Positions 8,473-52,065 of a DNA stretch of 64,000 bases are shown here, piece after piece. The first letter of the stretch is position 1; each line of letters starts with the position of its first letter. The translations under genes and the position numbers were made by a program. The stretch covers positions 9,618-73,617 of the forward strand of contig JBMNOU010000001.1 in NCBI GenBank assembly GCA_050943215.1, in the 5' to 3' direction. This DNA comes from Christensenellales bacterium. Its GTDB lineage: Bacteria > Bacillota > Clostridia > Christensenellales > SZUA-584. The notes beneath the pieces were generated by a model. It saw only the letters and a list, made by a program, of their open reading frames with translations, was not told the origin of the DNA and did not search any database.

Positions 8473-10377
8473 TTATCGCTCTTCCAGCCTAAAGTTTTTT
8501 GCCTTTATGTCAAGCGGAGAAAACGCACGCCCGCCGCCTTCATAAAATCTCGAGTAAAACTCAATAAACTGCAGCCTTGCTGTATGAACAAAAGCGCCTA
8601 GCGTGTTAATCGAAATATTAAACACATGTCCTACAGTGAGTATTACTGCAGAAACAATGTATCCGATTACATTGCCGAAAAACAGGCTCGCGATTGTGTT
8701 GAATACCATTGAGATGACCGATGTCGCAAGTCCCATACCGAATAAACGGCAGTAAGAGAGAATATCGCTGATATACCCGGTTACCCCGTATACACCTGCA
8801 AACCCTCCGATAAACTTCCGGAAGATACCTTTTTTACTACGTCCCTGTGTAAAGAATAATACCGCAATGCCTACGATGGCCATATACGTCCCGATTGTAC
8901 CGACTGTTCCACCAAGTGCCAGCAGGATACCTCCGATTAGCACCGCTATCCATGATATCTTGTCAAATACCGCCTCCCAGAAGTGGCCGCGTTTTATACA
9001 AATGTATGCACCGATACCAAGGCCGACCATAATATGCAGTATTCCAATCGCAAGACAGAGCACCAGAAGTGTCATTGCGTCATTAATCGGATTGATAACG
9101 GCGGGTATGCCTTCGATGCTGAATATTGTTCCAAAAAACAACCCCCAAAGTGCTGTGGATATTCCGCAGGTCATGACGATAGTTGTGACCTTTCGAAACA
9201 TACCGGTGGGTTTTTTTAGCTTTAGAACGACATAAGCGCCTATCGTTAATATGATACCGTAAGCGAAGTCTCCGACCATCATGCCAAACAACAAGAAATA
9301 AAAAACCGACATGATTACGCTTGGGTCAAATCCTTTTGAAGAAGGAAGAGAATACATTTCCGTAATCGCTTCAAAGGGTTCAACGAGCTTTGAATTTTTC
9401 ATCGCCGTAGGCGGTATTTCATCTGCCTTCGGTTCTCTAAAAGCAATATACGATTCGGGCGCCGCACTGAGCAGGGCTTTCTCTATTTTATCCTGGTCGT
9501 CAGCTACTATCCAACCTTCAAGCATGAACGTCATGCTAGTTTCGCCGAGTTTTTCGATGCATCGCTCTCTTTCGATTACGTTAACGAGATAATCCTCATA
9601 AGTTTTTAAAATCAGTTTATCGTCAACAAACTTCTTTGCAGCGGCTTCAAACTCTTTTGTTTCTTTTTCTAGCAATTGGTATTCGTTTTGGTATTTGAGA
9701 ATATTATCGTTTGGCGTGCCATACAAATTCTTCGTATAGGCTTCGGAAAGACCGATATATTTTAGCTCGCTGGTCAGTTTCCCGTGTATCTGATTGAGCA
9801 TAATGGTATATAAGACCAAAAAATCTTTATGTTCGTCTATTGTCTCAAAGTACGCACTTTCGCCGTAATCTTTTACGATTTGTTGAAATTTTTCCAGATT
9901 CTCTGAAGGGATCGTTCCAAGAAGACATGTTGTATACAGCCCAGTATTCATTCTTTCAAGCGGCACGTCAAACTTTTCATACGGTGCAAGCTGGGCTATT
10001 TTGTTTTTTAGTCGCTGTTTTTTTATTTTCAGAGCGTTGATGTCATCTGAAAATTGTTTGGTTTTATTAATAATCTCATCAGCATCAGAAAACTTTTCGG
10101 AACCACTCATAAGCTCGGATATAGATATCAGGGGTTTTGGCGTCAAAAAGGATGTTTTGCTATCATCGTATCTTCTGATCAGTTCAAGCGCTTGTAGAAT
10201 ATCCGCCAGTTTTGCTTCAAGGCTGCCAAGCGAGCGGGATACTTGCGCCGAGTTTATTTCTTCTAAACGTGTAGCGACGACTTCTATTGCGCCTATATTT
10301 TGTATCTCTTTGAGCAAAGTTTTTTTTCTGTCAGCATGAGCGATTAGCGTTATTTTTTTCATACTTAACAGCGCCAT
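8473..10377 (-). CDS. ntpI: V-type ATP synthase subunit I (a-subunit)
   Basis: 634 aa with a soluble coiled-coil N-terminal half and a polytopic C-terminal half. Confidence 0.9.
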   Translation of the reverse strand: MALLSMKKITLIAHADRKKTLLKEIQNIGAIEVVATRLEEINSAQVSRSLGSLEAKLADILQALELIRRYDDSKTSFLTPKPLISISELMSGSEKFSDADEIINKTKQFSDDINALKIKKQRLKNKIAQLAPYEKFDVPLERMNTGLYTTCLLGTIPSENLEKFQQIVKDYGESAYFETIDEHKDFLVLYTIMLNQIHGKLTSELKYIGLSEAYTKNLYGTPNDNILKYQNEYQLLEKETKEFEAAAKKFVDDKLILKTYEDYLVNVIERERCIEKLGETSMTFMLEGWIVADDQDKIEKALLSAAPESYIAFREPKADEIPPTAMKNSKLVEPFEAITEMYSLPSSKGFDPSVIMSVFYFLLFGMMVGDFAYGIILTIGAYVVLKLKKPTGMFRKVTTIVMTCGISTALWGLFFGTIFSIEGIPAVINPINDAMTLLVLCLAIGILHIMVGLGIGAYICIKRGHFWEAVFDKISWIAVLIGGILLALGGTVGTIGTYMAIVGIAVLFFTQGRSKKGIFRKFIGGFAGVYGVTGYISDILSYCRLFGMGLATSVISMVFNTIASLFFGNVIGYIVSAVILTVGHVFNISINTLGAFVHTARLQFIEFYSRFYEGGGRAFSPLDIKAKNFRLEER

Positions 10378-21425: not shown

Positions 21426-22187
21426 TTAAGGATCTTCATCTGTCGTAAACGATACGATAAACTGTCTGACGCCTGAATATTCCGCCGCATACGCCTTCCT
21501 TTTCTCTAAAGATCGTTTTCCCATCAGGGAATCTGCCTGGAAACTAAAACATGTGTTTTCGCTGACGATGATATGGTCAAGGAGTTCAATGCCAAGAATA
21601 TTGAGCGCGCGAAGAATGTCTTGCGTTGTGTCAATGTCCGCCTTGGATGGCGTCACATTTCCACCCGGATGATTATGAGCGATCACGCCTTTGGCCGCAT
21701 GGTGCCTCAGTGCGGCTGCCGCGACTTTGTTCAAATAGACGGGAGATTCCGATATACCGCCTTCGGAGAGCCTCTCGTGATGTATTACTCTGTTCTGCGT
21801 ATCCAGCCATATCACGTAAAACTGCTCAAACGTTTTTCCAAACAGCAATGATTTTGCAAAATCACAAGCGTCTTTGATCGATTTAATAAAAGGACGTTTG
21901 CCAAGTTTGCTATGCTGATACGCTCTGAATATTTCGGGAAACATACAGATATACGCCGCTGTTTTCCTGCCGATACCTGCGACCTGTTCTAAGTCTTTTG
22001 CGTTGGCTTCAAGCACACCCGCAAGGCTACCGAAAGTTTTAATCAACCTATGGGCAATGGCGTTAGTATCAACCCGTGGTAGTGCATAAAATAATATGTA
22101 CTCAAGTATTTCGTGCTCTTCAAAACTTTCGAGCCCCTCGCTTAAGAACCTGTTGGTCAGCCGTTGCCTATGGCCCTCATGCATCAA
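21426..22187 (-). CDS. radC: RadC-like JAB-domain protein
   Basis: MHEGHRQRL...HEILEYIL N-terminus, an HhH region, and the HNHPGG JAMM motif. Confidence 0.85.
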   Translation of the reverse strand: MMHEGHRQRLTNRFLSEGLESFEEHEILEYILFYALPRVDTNAIAHRLIKTFGSLAGVLEANAKDLEQVAGIGRKTAAYICMFPEIFRAYQHSKLGKRPFIKSIKDACDFAKSLLFGKTFEQFYVIWLDTQNRVIHHERLSEGGISESPVYLNKVAAAALRHHAAKGVIAHNHPGGNVTPSKADIDTTQDILRALNILGIELLDHIIVSENTCFSFQADSLMGKRSLEKRKAYAAEYSGVRQFIVSFTTDEDP

Positions 22188-46886: not shown

Positions 46887-47561
46887 ATGGCATTGATAAG
46901 TGCATTTATCACCAATTTAGGCAAATACAACGAAGGCGAACTTGTAGGAAAGTGGCATGGCTTTCCTACCACAAAGGAAGCTATCATGCAGACATTTCGG
47001 AAAATCGGCATTGACGGTGTCCGTTACGAAGAATTTTTCATTACTGATTATGATTGTGAGATCGATGGGATTTACGACTGCTTGGGTGAACATGCCAATA
47101 TCGATGAATTAAACTATCTTGCTTCTAAACTGGACGATATGGCAAGCTATGAGATCGAGCATTATGAGTCAGCAATAGAGACAGGCGAATATAGCAGCAG
47201 CGTTAAAGATCTGATTAACCTTACCGACAACCTCCACTGCTTTGATTATTTGGAAGGCGTCACTAATGATTACGATCTCGGCTATTATTGGGTTGAAGAA
47301 AGCGGTTGCCACGATACCAAGAGCATGGGCAGCTTGACTAACTATATCGACTATGAGGGGTTTGGAAGGGATATTCGTCTTGAAGAAAGCGGTATATTTG
47401 CCGGCAAGGGCTATATCCGCAACAATGGTGATACGTTCAGCGAAGATTACGACGGAATGAACGTGCCGGATGAATACAAAGTATTTGCTTTACCAAAACC
47501 TAAACTCCTATCACGAAACGCCCCTAAACTAAAAGCAAAACATGATAGGGATGCAAGATAA
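46887..47561 (+). CDS. ardA: Antirestriction protein ArdA
   Basis: The N-terminus ISAFITNLGKYNEGELVGKWHGFPTT, the acidic overall composition and the roughly 220-aa length are typical of ArdA. Confidence 0.85.
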   Translation: MALISAFITNLGKYNEGELVGKWHGFPTTKEAIMQTFRKIGIDGVRYEEFFITDYDCEIDGIYDCLGEHANIDELNYLASKLDDMASYEIEHYESAIETGEYSSSVKDLINLTDNLHCFDYLEGVTNDYDLGYYWVEESGCHDTKSMGSLTNYIDYEGFGRDIRLEESGIFAGKGYIRNNGDTFSEDYDGMNVPDEYKVFALPKPKLLSRNAPKLKAKHDRDAR

Positions 47562-47593: not shown

Positions 47594-48980
47594 ACATATC
47601 AAGCAGCGTTGATCTGGGTAGTGTCAAATCAAGTTTGCAAAATCACTCCGATAAGAATGAATCAAGCGGCAGATAAAAAGGCGTCCTGAATGGACTGTGC
47701 ACTCAAATATGCCCTTGCGGACGACCAGTCTTCTGAATATTCCATGAGGTACGTGGCGACCAGCCGCAGGTAGGATGCAGGGTTCGGGAAGATACCGACC
47801 ACTCTGGTACGCCGCCGGATTTCTTTATTGAGTCTTTCCAGCATATTGGAACTGGAAGTCTTTCGAAAATCCAAAGCCGGGAAACAAAAGAACGCGAGGG
47901 AGTCTTCCAGTCCGTCTTCCAGTATTCGAATGGCCTGCGGAAACCGCTTCTCAAATTCTTCGACCAGCGCGGCAGCCCTTCTTCGGGCGGTCTCCATGTC
48001 CGGAGCAAGCCATATCTGTTTGAGCTTCCCTGCAAAAACCTGCTTGTCCCTATGCGGAACATGAACCAAAATGTTGCGCATAAAATGCACTTTGCAACGC
48101 TGCCAGCAAGCGCCGGGGAAGCTTTCGCGTATGGCGGCGACCAATCCGGCGTGGGCGTCCGAAATGACCAGGGACGGGGCGATAAGCCCTCGGCCTTTCA
48201 GCCTTTCAAAGAGCTGGGCATAGCTTTCACGGGATTCATCCAGCATAGGCTCGACGGCCAGCACCTCCCTTGATCCGGCTTCATTGACTCCACAGACAAG
48301 CAGGATCGCCATGCTAACAACACGCCCGTCGTAACGTACCTTTTCATACAGAGCATCCACCCAAAGCACGGGGTAACGGTTGCCTTCAAGCGACCGGTTG
48401 CAGAACGCCTCCACCTGCCCGTCCATTTCTTTGGCCGTGTTGCTTACCTGAGAGCGTGACAGGTTTTCAATTCCCAAACGCTTTGCCAGACGCTCCATTT
48501 TGCGGGTAGAAACGCCGTTTATGAAAGCCTCCTGAACCACCTGGATGAGCGCCGCTTCGCTTCGTTTTCGGTCACTCACAAAGAACGGAACATACCCGCC
48601 TTGCCGCATCTTGGGAACCATCAGATAGATCGTCCCCATCCTGGTGTCAAATCGTCTGGGGCGGTAGCCTGAACGATAGCCTTGACGGTCGGTGGTGTGC
48701 TGTGATTTTTCCGCTCCGATTCTTGTCGAAATCTCCGCTTCCATCAATTGATCGCATAGCCACTCCAGCATCGACAGCATCGGATCAGGTTCGCTCATGC
48801 ATTGCAGTAGTAATTCAGCCAGGTTTGTGGTAGTCTTTTTTTGAGCCATCGGTTTTTCTCCTTTTGAATGATTTGCTCGCACCATTCATTCTATCGGAGT
48901 GTCCGGTGGCTTTCCATATCCACATATAAATTGCAAACACTTTTGTACTCTATCTTGATCTGTAACGCTGCTTGATATGT
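47594..48980. mobile_element. IS256-family insertion sequence
   Basis: 17-bp perfect terminal inverted repeats, ACATATCAAGCAGCGTT (47594-47610) and its reverse complement (48964-48980). Imperfect similarity continues about 45 bp inward, including GTTTGCAA. A single mutator-type transposase lies inside. Total length is 1387 bp. Confidence 0.8.
47662..48849 (-). CDS. IS256-family (mutator-type) transposase
   Basis: About 395 aa with a typical N-terminus (AELLLQ...DPMLSMLEWLCDQLMEAE) and a DDE region (WVDALY..., VISDAHAGL..., CKVHFMRN). The start is trimmed to ATG 48849. Confidence 0.9.
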   Translation of the reverse strand: MAQKKTTTNLAELLLQCMSEPDPMLSMLEWLCDQLMEAEISTRIGAEKSQHTTDRQGYRSGYRPRRFDTRMGTIYLMVPKMRQGGYVPFFVSDRKRSEAALIQVVQEAFINGVSTRKMERLAKRLGIENLSRSQVSNTAKEMDGQVEAFCNRSLEGNRYPVLWVDALYEKVRYDGRVVSMAILLVCGVNEAGSREVLAVEPMLDESRESYAQLFERLKGRGLIAPSLVISDAHAGLVAAIRESFPGACWQRCKVHFMRNILVHVPHRDKQVFAGKLKQIWLAPDMETARRRAAALVEEFEKRFPQAIRILEDGLEDSLAFFCFPALDFRKTSSSNMLERLNKEIRRRTRVVGIFPNPASYLRLVATYLMEYSEDWSSARAYLSAQSIQDAFLSAA

Positions 48981-50168: not shown

Positions 50169-50828
50169 TCACCTCTTATCCAATTCAGCTATGATTGATT
50201 CAAAGTCATCCTTGTATCGTTCATAGAGTGAACTTACCTTAAGCTCGTTGATTTTCTCTCTATGGCAATCTCTGTAGCGCTTGCCAGATTGACAGGGGCA
50301 TTGAAAATGTCCTTTCAGGTTTTCTCTGAACAGACAAACCAATAAAGCGTATGCAACTTTGATATCAGTGGTTTCAAACAATTCACAGTAATAATCCAAC
50401 AGCCCCTCGACTCCGTGCTTGTGTTCTCCGAACGGCAAGTATTTGTGCTTTCGGTAAAATAAGAAACCGCAGAGATAGGTATCCAAGTACTTGGCCAAAA
50501 AAGCAAGCAAGCTTGGATGTTCCTGCAAAAACGCAGCTATTGCCGTATCAACTTCCAAACAGAGCTGACCGTTTGCGTATACATGTCCCTTGTAATTGTT
50601 AGCCCGGATTTTACCGTCTGTGTTTTTTGCTGTTGGGATATCTTCAGGGAAGCCATTGGGAACAAAAATTTCAAGCGAAAAGTAGTTTTCAAATATTTCA
50701 TTTTCAAACTGATTGCAGATTTTATATTTGCCGATAAATTTCAAACCGCCATCAATCTCGGTTTTTGTCAACAGCGGCTGTTGTACTAACAGTATTTCAA
50801 CCTCCTCCAGTACCGCAGCTCGCAACAT
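50169..50828 (-). CDS. E2 (UBC)-like protein with C-terminal SEC-C zinc motif
   Basis: SLEIFVPNGFPEDIP followed by GHVYANGQLCLE mirrors the UBC (f.fp..YP..pP ... HPN...G.iCL) active-site layout. The C-terminal CPCQSGKRYRDCH is a SEC-C motif. Confidence 0.65.
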   Translation of the reverse strand: MLRAAVLEEVEILLVQQPLLTKTEIDGGLKFIGKYKICNQFENEIFENYFSLEIFVPNGFPEDIPTAKNTDGKIRANNYKGHVYANGQLCLEVDTAIAAFLQEHPSLLAFLAKYLDTYLCGFLFYRKHKYLPFGEHKHGVEGLLDYYCELFETTDIKVAYALLVCLFRENLKGHFQCPCQSGKRYRDCHREKINELKVSSLYERYKDDFESIIAELDKR

Positions 50829-50829
50829 A

Positions 50830-52065
50830 TCACCGCCTATATGGTTTGGGCTGATTGACTCCTGTGATTATTGTGGGAACAGATTTCGTTGCATTAAGGT
50901 TTAGGTTAGCATATATGCGTTTAGTAGCCTCTTCGCCAAAGCTCTTTTGAAGTGATGTGAATTTGTCCGCTGAATCCGCTCGGTCAAATCCAAAATCGCT
51001 TTTTATCCATTCGACCCATTTGAAAAACGCCTTTGCGCGTGCGTTTCCATCTTCAGTCCAACGCTCCGCAAAATTTTCATATGGGTTGACAGGATTGCAT
51101 AGGTGCCAGCCATCACTGTCGCGTTTGATAATCACAGCATTTCTTTGTGCCAGCCTTTCCGCTGAATAAGCATAGAAGTCTTGGTTTAGAGAGGAATATT
51201 GACTCAATTCTTCGACAACTGCTTGGAGCAGCTCTTTAACAGAGGCATTATACAACTTTTTCTCGGCAGCGATTTGTGCCACAAGAACTGTAATTATAAT
51301 TGAAATTGGTCTGTAAGCGTAATCGGGCTGTCTGTCGAAACGAACATCACGATGCCGCTTGAAAAGCTGAATCACTCGTTGTAACGAGGATTTTAAAAGT
51401 GGTTCAGGAACGGCCTCAATGGAAGCATAAGCTTTCTTTTCAACAAGTATCCGCCGCTGATATTCCGAAACGGCTTGGAGGTAAGGGGTGTTAATATTTT
51501 TGAACCAGTCAACCAAACCGTGCGAATTGCCTGTCGACCAGTCATATGTATCTCCGTCTTTGTCAAAGTCCGTTATTGCTATTGCTTTTTTTGCAATTGA
51601 AAGGGGAATATTTTTGAACACGATTTTGTTGATTATTTCATTCTCCTCGTGTACACATGGTAGAACATCCATATGAAAGCCTACGCCGTCCGTCGGCGCA
51701 TAATTCAATGTCCAACAACGCCGCCCTTCGTTTGGGTCAAGCAAGTTTTTATGATATTGACTTTTGTCAAGGCATTTCCCAACCGACTTTTTTAATACTC
51801 GGGGTTTGAGGATAAGCTTATCGTCCGAAGATTGCGCTACAAGATCAATATCAAAGTCGGCATCTCTCCCCTCCCGATAAGGACGTATGACCGTGCCGAA
51901 CGCAAACGACCCTTGTGTGTAAACATCTGTTGCTACACCATCCTCGGTTAAGCATTTTGCTACCGCCTCATAGTGAGATTTCGCCAAATCATATTGTGTT
52001 GGTGTGATGTCTATCTGCTTATACAATTCCTCAGTCACGGAATCGAAGTTCAAAATTTTTTCCAT
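50830..52065 (-). CDS. CD-NTase/SMODS-like nucleotidyltransferase
   Basis: Pol-beta NTase triad context: YTQGSFAFGTVIRP, DADFDIDLV, and GFHMDVLP. The 411-aa length and the genomic context with E2 and HNH-SAVED also fit. Confidence 0.75.
   Translation of the reverse strand: MEKILNFDSVTEELYKQIDITPTQYDLAKSHYEAVAKCLTEDGVATDVYTQGSFAFGTVIRPYREGRDADFDIDLVAQSSDDKLILKPRVLKKSVGKCLDKSQYHKNLLDPNEGRRCWTLNYAPTDGVGFHMDVLPCVHEENEIINKIVFKNIPLSIAKKAIAITDFDKDGDTYDWSTGNSHGLVDWFKNINTPYLQAVSEYQRRILVEKKAYASIEAVPEPLLKSSLQRVIQLFKRHRDVRFDRQPDYAYRPISIIITVLVAQIAAEKKLYNASVKELLQAVVEELSQYSSLNQDFYAYSAERLAQRNAVIIKRDSDGWHLCNPVNPYENFAERWTEDGNARAKAFFKWVEWIKSDFGFDRADSADKFTSLQKSFGEEATKRIYANLNLNATKSVPTIITGVNQPKPYRR

Follow-up and report, generated by a model that had tools for sequence, protein, structure and literature searches.

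The 64,000-nucleotide stretch analyzed here (the window; positions 9,618 to 73,617 of the forward strand of contig JBMNOU010000001.1, Christensenellales bacterium assembly GCA_050943215.1) carries a defense cassette of four tightly packed minus-strand open reading frames (ORFs) in the order SoFic, cyclase, long E2 and Cap5 HNH-SAVED (Table 1). The intergenic gaps were 10, 1 and 6 nt; the Fic gene, the first of the cassette, ended 10 bp ahead of the cyclase start, the E2 ATG lay 1 nt past the cyclase TGA with AGGCGG just upstream, and the Cap5 start was 6 nt beyond the E2 stop. Translation of the E2 gene is coupled to that of the cyclase gene. All four ORFs were intact and full length when compared with their family models. 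The locus is an intact E2-only (type II-short) antiphage signaling system based on cyclic oligonucleotides (CBASS) and an ordinary member of a catalogued family, and the position held by an essential Gly in the studied system of this kind is naturally Arg here.

Table 1. Features of the cassette and of two genes outside it
Feature	Coordinates	Strand	Basis
SoFic-type Fic protein with C-terminal winged helix-turn-helix, 368 aa	52076..53182	-	PADLOC SoFic 1.6e-103; Pfam Fic + Fic_N
CdnG-like CD-NTase (cyclase), 411 aa	50830..52065	-	PADLOC Cyclase PDLC00780 6.6e-93; Pfam DncV-like NTFase + SMODS
Flexible C-terminal tail of the cyclase, aa 388-411, LNLNATKSVPTIITGVNQPKPYRR	50833..50904	-	AlphaFold2 confidence drop, no secondary structure
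Long E2 (UBC fold), 219 aa	50169..50828	-	PADLOC E2 PDLC00871 6.9e-48
Codon of putative catalytic Cys90 (GQLCLE)	50559..50561	-	Family alignment
Internal SEC-C-type zinc knuckle CPCQSGKRYRDCH, aa 177-189	50262..50300	-	Pfam PF02810 above cut-off
Cap5-type effector, N-terminal HNH nuclease + C-terminal SAVED sensor, 375 aa	49035..50162	-	PADLOC + Pfam
IS256/Mutator-family transposase, intact	47662-48885	-	Pfam 2.5e-112
RadC-like JAB protein with helix-hairpin-helix (HhH) motifs, same contig	21426-22187	-	Sole JAB-like match in genome

Membership in CBASS was evident from a nucleotidyltransferase of the cGAS/DncV-like type (CD-NTase) with a GS motif and a catalytic Asp triad, adjacent to an effector with a SAVED sensor domain (PADLOC Effector/Endonuclease 3.9e-119 and SAVED_HNH 1.7e-109; Pfam SAVED 5e-53 plus HNH). 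Beside the cyclase stood an E2 of the ubiquitin-conjugating (UBC) fold with its Cys, and Pfam detected neither an E1 nor a JAB domain in any of the four proteins of the operon, as an earlier reading of the letters (the sequence-only reading) had stated; the locus thus belongs to the type II-short class and lacks the E1-E2 fusion and JAB deconjugase of type II (Cap2/Cap3) CBASS. The genome-wide search covered JAB and not E1, and Prok-JAB gave a single sub-threshold match to a RadC-like gene, which is not Cap3.

Translation of the ORF at 50169-50828 gave a product containing LEIFVPNGFPEDIP, GHVYANGQLCLEVD and CPCQSGKRYRDCH. This 219-aa protein had been called a UBC-like E2 from its letters, and the call survived a check for a non-UBC fold. 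Its residues 8-216 aligned to positions 9-215 of the 241 in the PADLOC model PDLC00871, a full-length match. The AlphaFold2 (AF2) model, built with 19 homologues, reached a predicted local distance difference test (pLDDT) score of 89 and a predicted template modeling score of 0.85, with a helix/four-strand/helix layout, and Foldseek matched it in the Protein Data Bank (PDB) to UBC/UEV folds exclusively (UFC1, UEV domains, Cdc34 and Ubc13; best match 9ia8, E 7.8e-4, probability 1.0). The E2 family profile gave weak Ubc13-type matches in the PDB at E about 0.3.

In an alignment of 149 E2 family sequences, H82, C90 and H138 were 100% conserved, and these three together with C177, C179 and C188 made up the residues conserved at 99-100%. 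Cys90 and both His were invariant whichever tail type the partner cyclase had. The E2s of E2-CBASS conserve two His, the second of which is His152 in the E2 of the Serratia marcescens system, SmE2 (bioRxiv 10.1101/2022.05.25.493364), and the same arrangement of one Cys and two His was present here. Judged by their order and spacing alone, H82, C90 and H138 would be the equivalents of H87, C101 and H152 of SmE2. No acceptor Lys was on the list of residues conserved at 85% in the E2 family. At aa 69-73, the clade of this locus reads K(N/T)TDG(K/R)I, and 91% of the family has a Glu there (T-E-x-G-G-R-I-P); the loop appears two residues shorter, and Asp71 may stand in for the Glu.

The E2 also carried a SEC-C-type zinc knuckle, which the sequence-only reading had described as the end of the protein. 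The motif itself was confirmed: it scored 22.8 bits against a Pfam cut-off of 20.4 (PF02810), displayed the CxC-x9-C[HC] signature and aligned to SecA zinc peptides in the PDB. Its terminal position was not, since 30 residues (REKINELKVSSLYERYKDDFESIIAELDKR) come after aa 189, predicted as two helices (H185-197 and H202-218) in the AF2 model, and the knuckle therefore does not lie at the extreme C-terminus as it does in SecA. It lay in the region where the E2 model was least confident (pLDDT 70-81), between helices of the C-terminal extension, which takes the place of the Lys-bearing loop of SmE2. Among close E2 homologues C177, P178, C179 and C188 were invariant, and H189 was 88% conserved in the 149-sequence alignment.

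When 1.84 billion representative proteins were searched with the E2 profile, 2,194 clusters passed E<=1e-3, and 1,491 passed E<=1e-10. When the best 150 clusters were inspected, with one representative per 50%-identity cluster, CxC...C was present in 149/150; the knuckle ended in CH in 127 representatives (108 of them CPC-x9-CH), and 22 carried a CPCGCGxxxGxC-type variant. The PADLOC reference model of the E2 likewise contains a SEC-C-like segment. These counts, the conservation in the alignment and the content of the PADLOC model indicate that the knuckle is integral to the long-E2 family and not a fusion specific to this locus, so the SEC-C tail loses the novelty that had been claimed for it. 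The knuckle is probably structural, and the simplest reading makes it a zinc site within a lid or docking module formed by the helical C-terminal extension. A literature search linking SEC-C to CBASS, SMODS or E2 returned just an unrelated lactococcal SEC-C protein.

When the PADLOC E2 model was run over 401 genomes of the phylum, 4 true E2 operons were recovered and the remaining matches were C-termini of large proteins; positions 165-193 of the model cross-matched the C-termini of 850-980-aa proteins, taken as SecA. In other genomes of the phylum (L006-L010), PDLC00871 matched the last ~30 residues of SecA-like proteins of 850-980 aa at E ~1e-5 to 1e-6. These matches arose purely through the SEC-C segment of the model, which may thus give rise to false E2 calls when defense systems are annotated.

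The cyclase carried the catalytic motifs QGSF (51-54), DFDID (70-74) and FHMD (130-133), with G52, S53, D72, D74 and D133 invariant in the homologue alignment. Its sequence matches in the PDB were 9woo (1.6e-32) and SmCdnG 8hsb, and the AF2 model (pLDDT 92.9) was closest in fold to BdCdnG 7ljn and to the SmCdnG of the CdnG-E2 complex 8yjy/8hsb. The only internal dip in confidence was at aa 121-130 (pLDDT 77). Confident helices (pLDDT ~96) were modeled at aa 181-226, the site of the reported clade-G activation loop. Clade-G cyclases are reported to have a disordered, protease-sensing activation loop of ~30 aa (PMC12991175), which, going by the model, the cyclase of this locus may lack.

The last 24 residues of the cyclase (aa 388-411) fell from pLDDT 70 to 47 and had no secondary structure in the single-chain model, and this tail is predicted to be disordered in isolation, as is the Serratia tail, which threads into its E2. 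ORF translation agreed with the earlier reading that the protein ends in ...NQPKPYRR; the family motif is K407-P408-Y409, followed by R410-R411. The same ending in close homologues that are also 411 aa long shows that neither truncation nor misassembly produced it. The conserved Gly (Ala tolerated) near the C-terminus of Serratia-type cyclases was missing from this tail (KPY-R410-R411). G402, between TIITG and VNQPKPYRR, was considered as a hidden conjugation Gly and rejected, because that position is A, T, S or I in close homologues.

The residue straight after the aromatic of the tail motif [KR]P[WY], here called X, was surveyed in two samples. Among the 120 best cyclase homologues, 116 ended in [KRQS]-[P..]-[W/Y]-X plus 0-15 residues, with X being Gly in 53 and Arg in 42 of these; the commonest tail length after the aromatic was 2, and none ended at the aromatic itself. 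Within the cyclase clade of this locus X was Arg in 23/29 members. A search of genome contigs with the E2 alignment produced 41 pattern matches and 0 confirmed relatives. With the cyclase alignment, a search of species-representative genomes yielded 579 relatives, from which 80 loci were kept, and pairing of each cyclase with its adjacent E2 by hidden Markov model (HMM) left 49 non-redundant cyclase and long-E2 operons from Bacillota, Proteobacteria, Planctomycetota, Spirochaetota, Desulfobacterota and others. All 49 paired cyclases ended in [KR]P[WY]-X plus 0-7 further residues, with at least one residue after W/Y in every case. X was R in 22, G in 14, A, S and K in 3 each, and T, C, M and Q in 1 each, so that non-Gly residues formed the majority class (35/49). 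A knuckle-like CxC...C was present in every paired E2, with Gly-type and Arg-type partners alike, for example CPCNSEKKLRNCH beside the tail KPWG (L001) and CPCGSGLMLRKCH beside KPWRRLD (L015). The non-Gly terminus of the cyclase is therefore no novelty either, and the distinctiveness claimed for the locus fails because both flagged features are the family norm.

On a 50-tip cyclase tree built with the tail columns left out, X changed state at least 17 times, and sister taxa often differed (e.g., Q/R, S/R, K/R, G/A/G). R and G together accounted for 74-82% of cases, a bias strong enough to indicate that X is not neutral. The relative of solved structure, 9woo, ends in ...DPKPWFK plus one residue, with Phe at the X position. 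A natural cyclase-E2 fusion of 616 aa (P0178) was also encountered, in which ~8 residues (PYVKASQ) connect the cyclase tail motif ...TTQPW-S with helix 1 of an E2 that bears a knuckle; this tail cannot be a free C-terminus unless the E2 cuts it in cis. About 20 related cyclases had ~100-150 more aa and an additional, conserved C-terminal domain that ends in ...C(V/I)ARSGEFVVRIV; they lacked a KP[WY] tail. These longer cyclases had no adjacent E2 (L025, L029-L036, L039, L040, L044, L048, L052, L053, L056, L063, L065, L071 and L075), and a long E2 of the CPCGCGxRLGxC type lay 2-3 kb downstream at L029, L044 and L053.

The distribution of the knuckle bears on one option of the sequence-only reading, namely that the E2 has another substrate, possibly recruited through the SEC-C knuckle; this would be a host or phage protein, enlisted because the cyclase tail is non-Gly. 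SecA SEC-C motifs do mediate protein contacts, and the PDB matches of the knuckle were SecA zinc peptides. Yet the knuckle was equally present with Gly and non-Gly partner tails, which leaves the proposed connection without support, and the translational coupling of the E2 gene to the cyclase gene, the existence of natural cyclase-E2 fusions with a QPW motif at the junction and the invariant KP[WY] tail accompanying neighboring long E2s all point to the cyclase as the target. We regard recruitment of a different substrate as improbable.

The Serratia marcescens system is the only E2-only CBASS that has been studied, and its cyclase tail reads P400-K401...Y405-G406-E407 (Yan et al., bioRxiv 10.1101/2022.05.25.493364). 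SmE2 (162 aa) is a Cys101/His87 protease that strips whatever comes after G406, even fused MBP or GFP, and links G406 first to Cys101 and then to Lys159, as a thioester and an isopeptide, respectively (bioRxiv 10.1101/2022.05.25.493364). The substitutions G406V, G406L and G406R kill linkage or immunity, G406A is tolerated and Y405A is without effect (bioRxiv 10.1101/2022.05.25.493364). Poly-cGASylation, too, belongs to the Serratia-type mechanism. The follow-up structure paper (Xiao et al., mLife 2026, PMC12948482) describes the tail Gly as highly conserved and expects that the E2 would "perform cleavage and ligation". The premise that a CD-NTase should end in Gly or Ala thus holds for systems with E1-E2 and JAB, but not for the E2-only Serratia cyclase, which ends in Tyr-Gly-Glu. 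Likewise, processing of the tail, another option raised from the sequence, is known for E2-only CBASS from SmE2, although that precedent does not cover an Arg in the register of G406.

The best explanation starts from what was shown, namely the identity of the genes, the folds, how the residues are conserved and the commonness of both seemingly odd features, and we consider it fairly probable as a whole: an E2-only CBASS with a protease-ligase E2 that docks on KP[WY] and has a structural knuckle. Upon infection, the cyclase would make a cyclic dinucleotide, probably 3',2'-cGAMP, judging from CdnG-Cap5 systems; Cap5 would bind this signal with its SAVED domain, and its HNH nuclease would then destroy DNA. 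The E2 would regulate the cyclase, docking its disordered tail via the family-wide K-P-[W/Y] motif. By analogy with SmE2, Cys90 with His82 and His138 would act as a protease-ligase that cuts off the last residue(s) of the cyclase, and the E2 would keep the cyclase bound in a thioester or isopeptide adduct, which would prime or activate the cyclase. The knuckle would serve as the structural zinc site of the helical extension found in all long E2s.

Where the bond would form can be narrowed to Arg410 or the invariant aromatic Tyr409, since the residue in the register of G406 is usually Arg in this branch. The register of Tyr, X and last residue matches the Y-G-E of Serratia and argues for a bond at X (R410), whereas an invariant W/Y followed by a labile X favors cleavage between KP[WY] and X. 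In a bolder reading, which we consider rather unlikely, the long E2 would be a transpeptidase directed by K-P-[W/Y], attaching the cyclase via the Arg at +1 or via the aromatic after cleavage between KP[WY] and X. If this were true, it would be the first CBASS ubiquitin-like conjugation without a Gly or Ala carboxyl terminus, and the published "conserved glycine" rule would cover just a minority of E2-CBASS.

Several observations weigh against a protease-ligase role modeled on SmE2. Direct transfer of the Serratia mechanism predicts that an Arg tail cannot be conjugated, because G406R abolishes linkage. The equivalence of R410 and G406 rests on the motif and the C-terminal register and not on an alignment, and the HMMER alignments to 8hsb stop ~25-35 residues short of its end. 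Sequence and profile searches of the PDB at E<=10 returned SecA zinc peptides and weak Ubc13-type matches but no SmE2 chain; the E2 had no detectable sequence similarity to SmE2 even by family profile at this threshold, and the E2 chains of 8yjy/8hsb were absent among the top 50 fold matches. Mutual information between the class of X (R/K vs G) and the E2 columns revealed no clean or charge-complementary column, and the top columns looked phylogenetic.

Part of this evidence would suit a different role, in which the long E2 of Arg-type and other non-Gly operons is a non-covalent regulator that gates the cyclase by binding its KP[WY] tail. Abolition of linkage by G406R in the only system tested, the at least 17 changes in X expected of a residue that is not chemically critical, and the lack of an acceptor Lys on the 85% conservation list are all consistent with it. 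However, invariance of Cys90 and both His across 149 representatives is hard to explain without catalysis, and the residue that always follows W/Y fits a required scissile bond; without an E1, such a bond would supply the only energy source. These two features led us to favor catalysis over mere binding and to consider a purely non-covalent regulator rather unlikely.

The cassette was embedded among an ArdA gene, an IS256/Mutator transposase, a DUF3991/Toprim primase and a relaxase-like ORF. These neighbors mark a conjugative element, and the CBASS is carried as its cargo. The IS256/Mutator transposase lay directly downstream of Cap5, between the defense cassette and ArdA (46887-47561). The cassette was AT-richer than its surroundings (GC ~0.40 vs ~0.50), and a promoter and terminator scan of the operon gave signals at about shuffle level. 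A metagenomic relative (L092:3655-7785), whose E2 was 85% identical, had the same order of Fic, cyclase, E2 and SAVED genes, showing that the SoFic-led cassette recurs. Its Fic gene was called as 88 + 197 + 36 aa and its cyclase as 143 + 205 aa, reflecting decay or sequencing frameshifts.

This setting invites the question of whether the conjugation branch of the present copy has decayed, with a loss-of-function change from Gly to Arg in a system drifting on a mobile element. The genes called in pieces in the close relative and the transposase adjoining the operon would agree with such a history, but the four ORFs were intact and full length, all family-invariant residues of the E2 were retained, and R was the commonest X in the 49 paired operons as well as in the clade of the locus itself. 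Decay is thus very unlikely.

The locus alone matters little, being a regular member of a catalogued defense family. The at least 1,491 long-E2 clusters (50% identity, E<=1e-10) raise a family-level question of Arg/Gly switching in the register of G406: either the long E2s conjugate a residue other than Gly, or their control of the cyclase involves no conjugation. In both cases the single-example model of E1-independent ubiquitin-like signaling in bacteria would need revision. No paper on the long-E2, zinc-knuckle, KP[WY] branch was found in a literature search, and the branch has apparently never been tested at the bench.

Comparison with the Serratia E2-CBASS (PDB entries 8hsb, 8yjy and 9kkb) showed a common plan. 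Both systems are E2-only, with no E1 or JAB in the operon, and both have a clade-G-like cyclase with a flexible tail and an aromatic two positions before the C-terminus. Both E2s have one Cys and two His that are invariant in the family, and in both the cyclase ends on a residue other than the one in the conjugated register, so that trimming by the E2 is to be expected. The differences were equally clear. SmE2 has a Lys-bearing C-terminal loop and no zinc knuckle in its 162 aa, and zinc is not mentioned in either Serratia paper (bioRxiv 10.1101/2022.05.25.493364; PMC12948482), whereas the E2 studied here has 219 aa, a helical extension and a CPC...CH knuckle. The tails differ too, being Y-R-R here and Y-G-E in Serratia, where the Gly is essential; the Serratia effector is a 2TM-SAVED protein with an exonuclease, and here it is Cap5 HNH-SAVED. 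Because no sequence relation to SmE2 was detectable, the long knuckle-bearing E2s are best treated as a separate branch. Within the PADLOC E2 class (PDLC00871, 00870, 00865 and 00872), the protein is a regular member with no structural difference, and the catalogue carries no mechanism.

Like the Cap2/Cap3 type II CBASS (Enterobacter cloacae Cap2-CdnD, PDB 7to3), the locus pairs a CD-NTase with a UBC-like E2 module that regulates it through its C-terminus; in the Cap2/Cap3 systems, however, the terminal Gly or Ala of the cyclase is activated with ATP by E1 adenylation and a JAB domain is present, and neither domain is encoded in this operon. The knuckle shares the CPCxSGxK[YF][RK]xCH signature with the SEC-C of SecA (PF02810; PDB 1ozb, 1sx0 and 1tm6), but it is internal, is followed by two helices and is embedded in an E2 outside any SecB or ribosome context. 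In its cyclase and effector the locus resembles the CdnG-Cap5 systems of Asticcacaulis and Lactococcus (bioRxiv 10.1101/2021.08.31.458341), and the combination of a clade-G-like cyclase with an HNH-SAVED Cap5, as in those systems, makes a 3',2'-cGAMP signal plausible.

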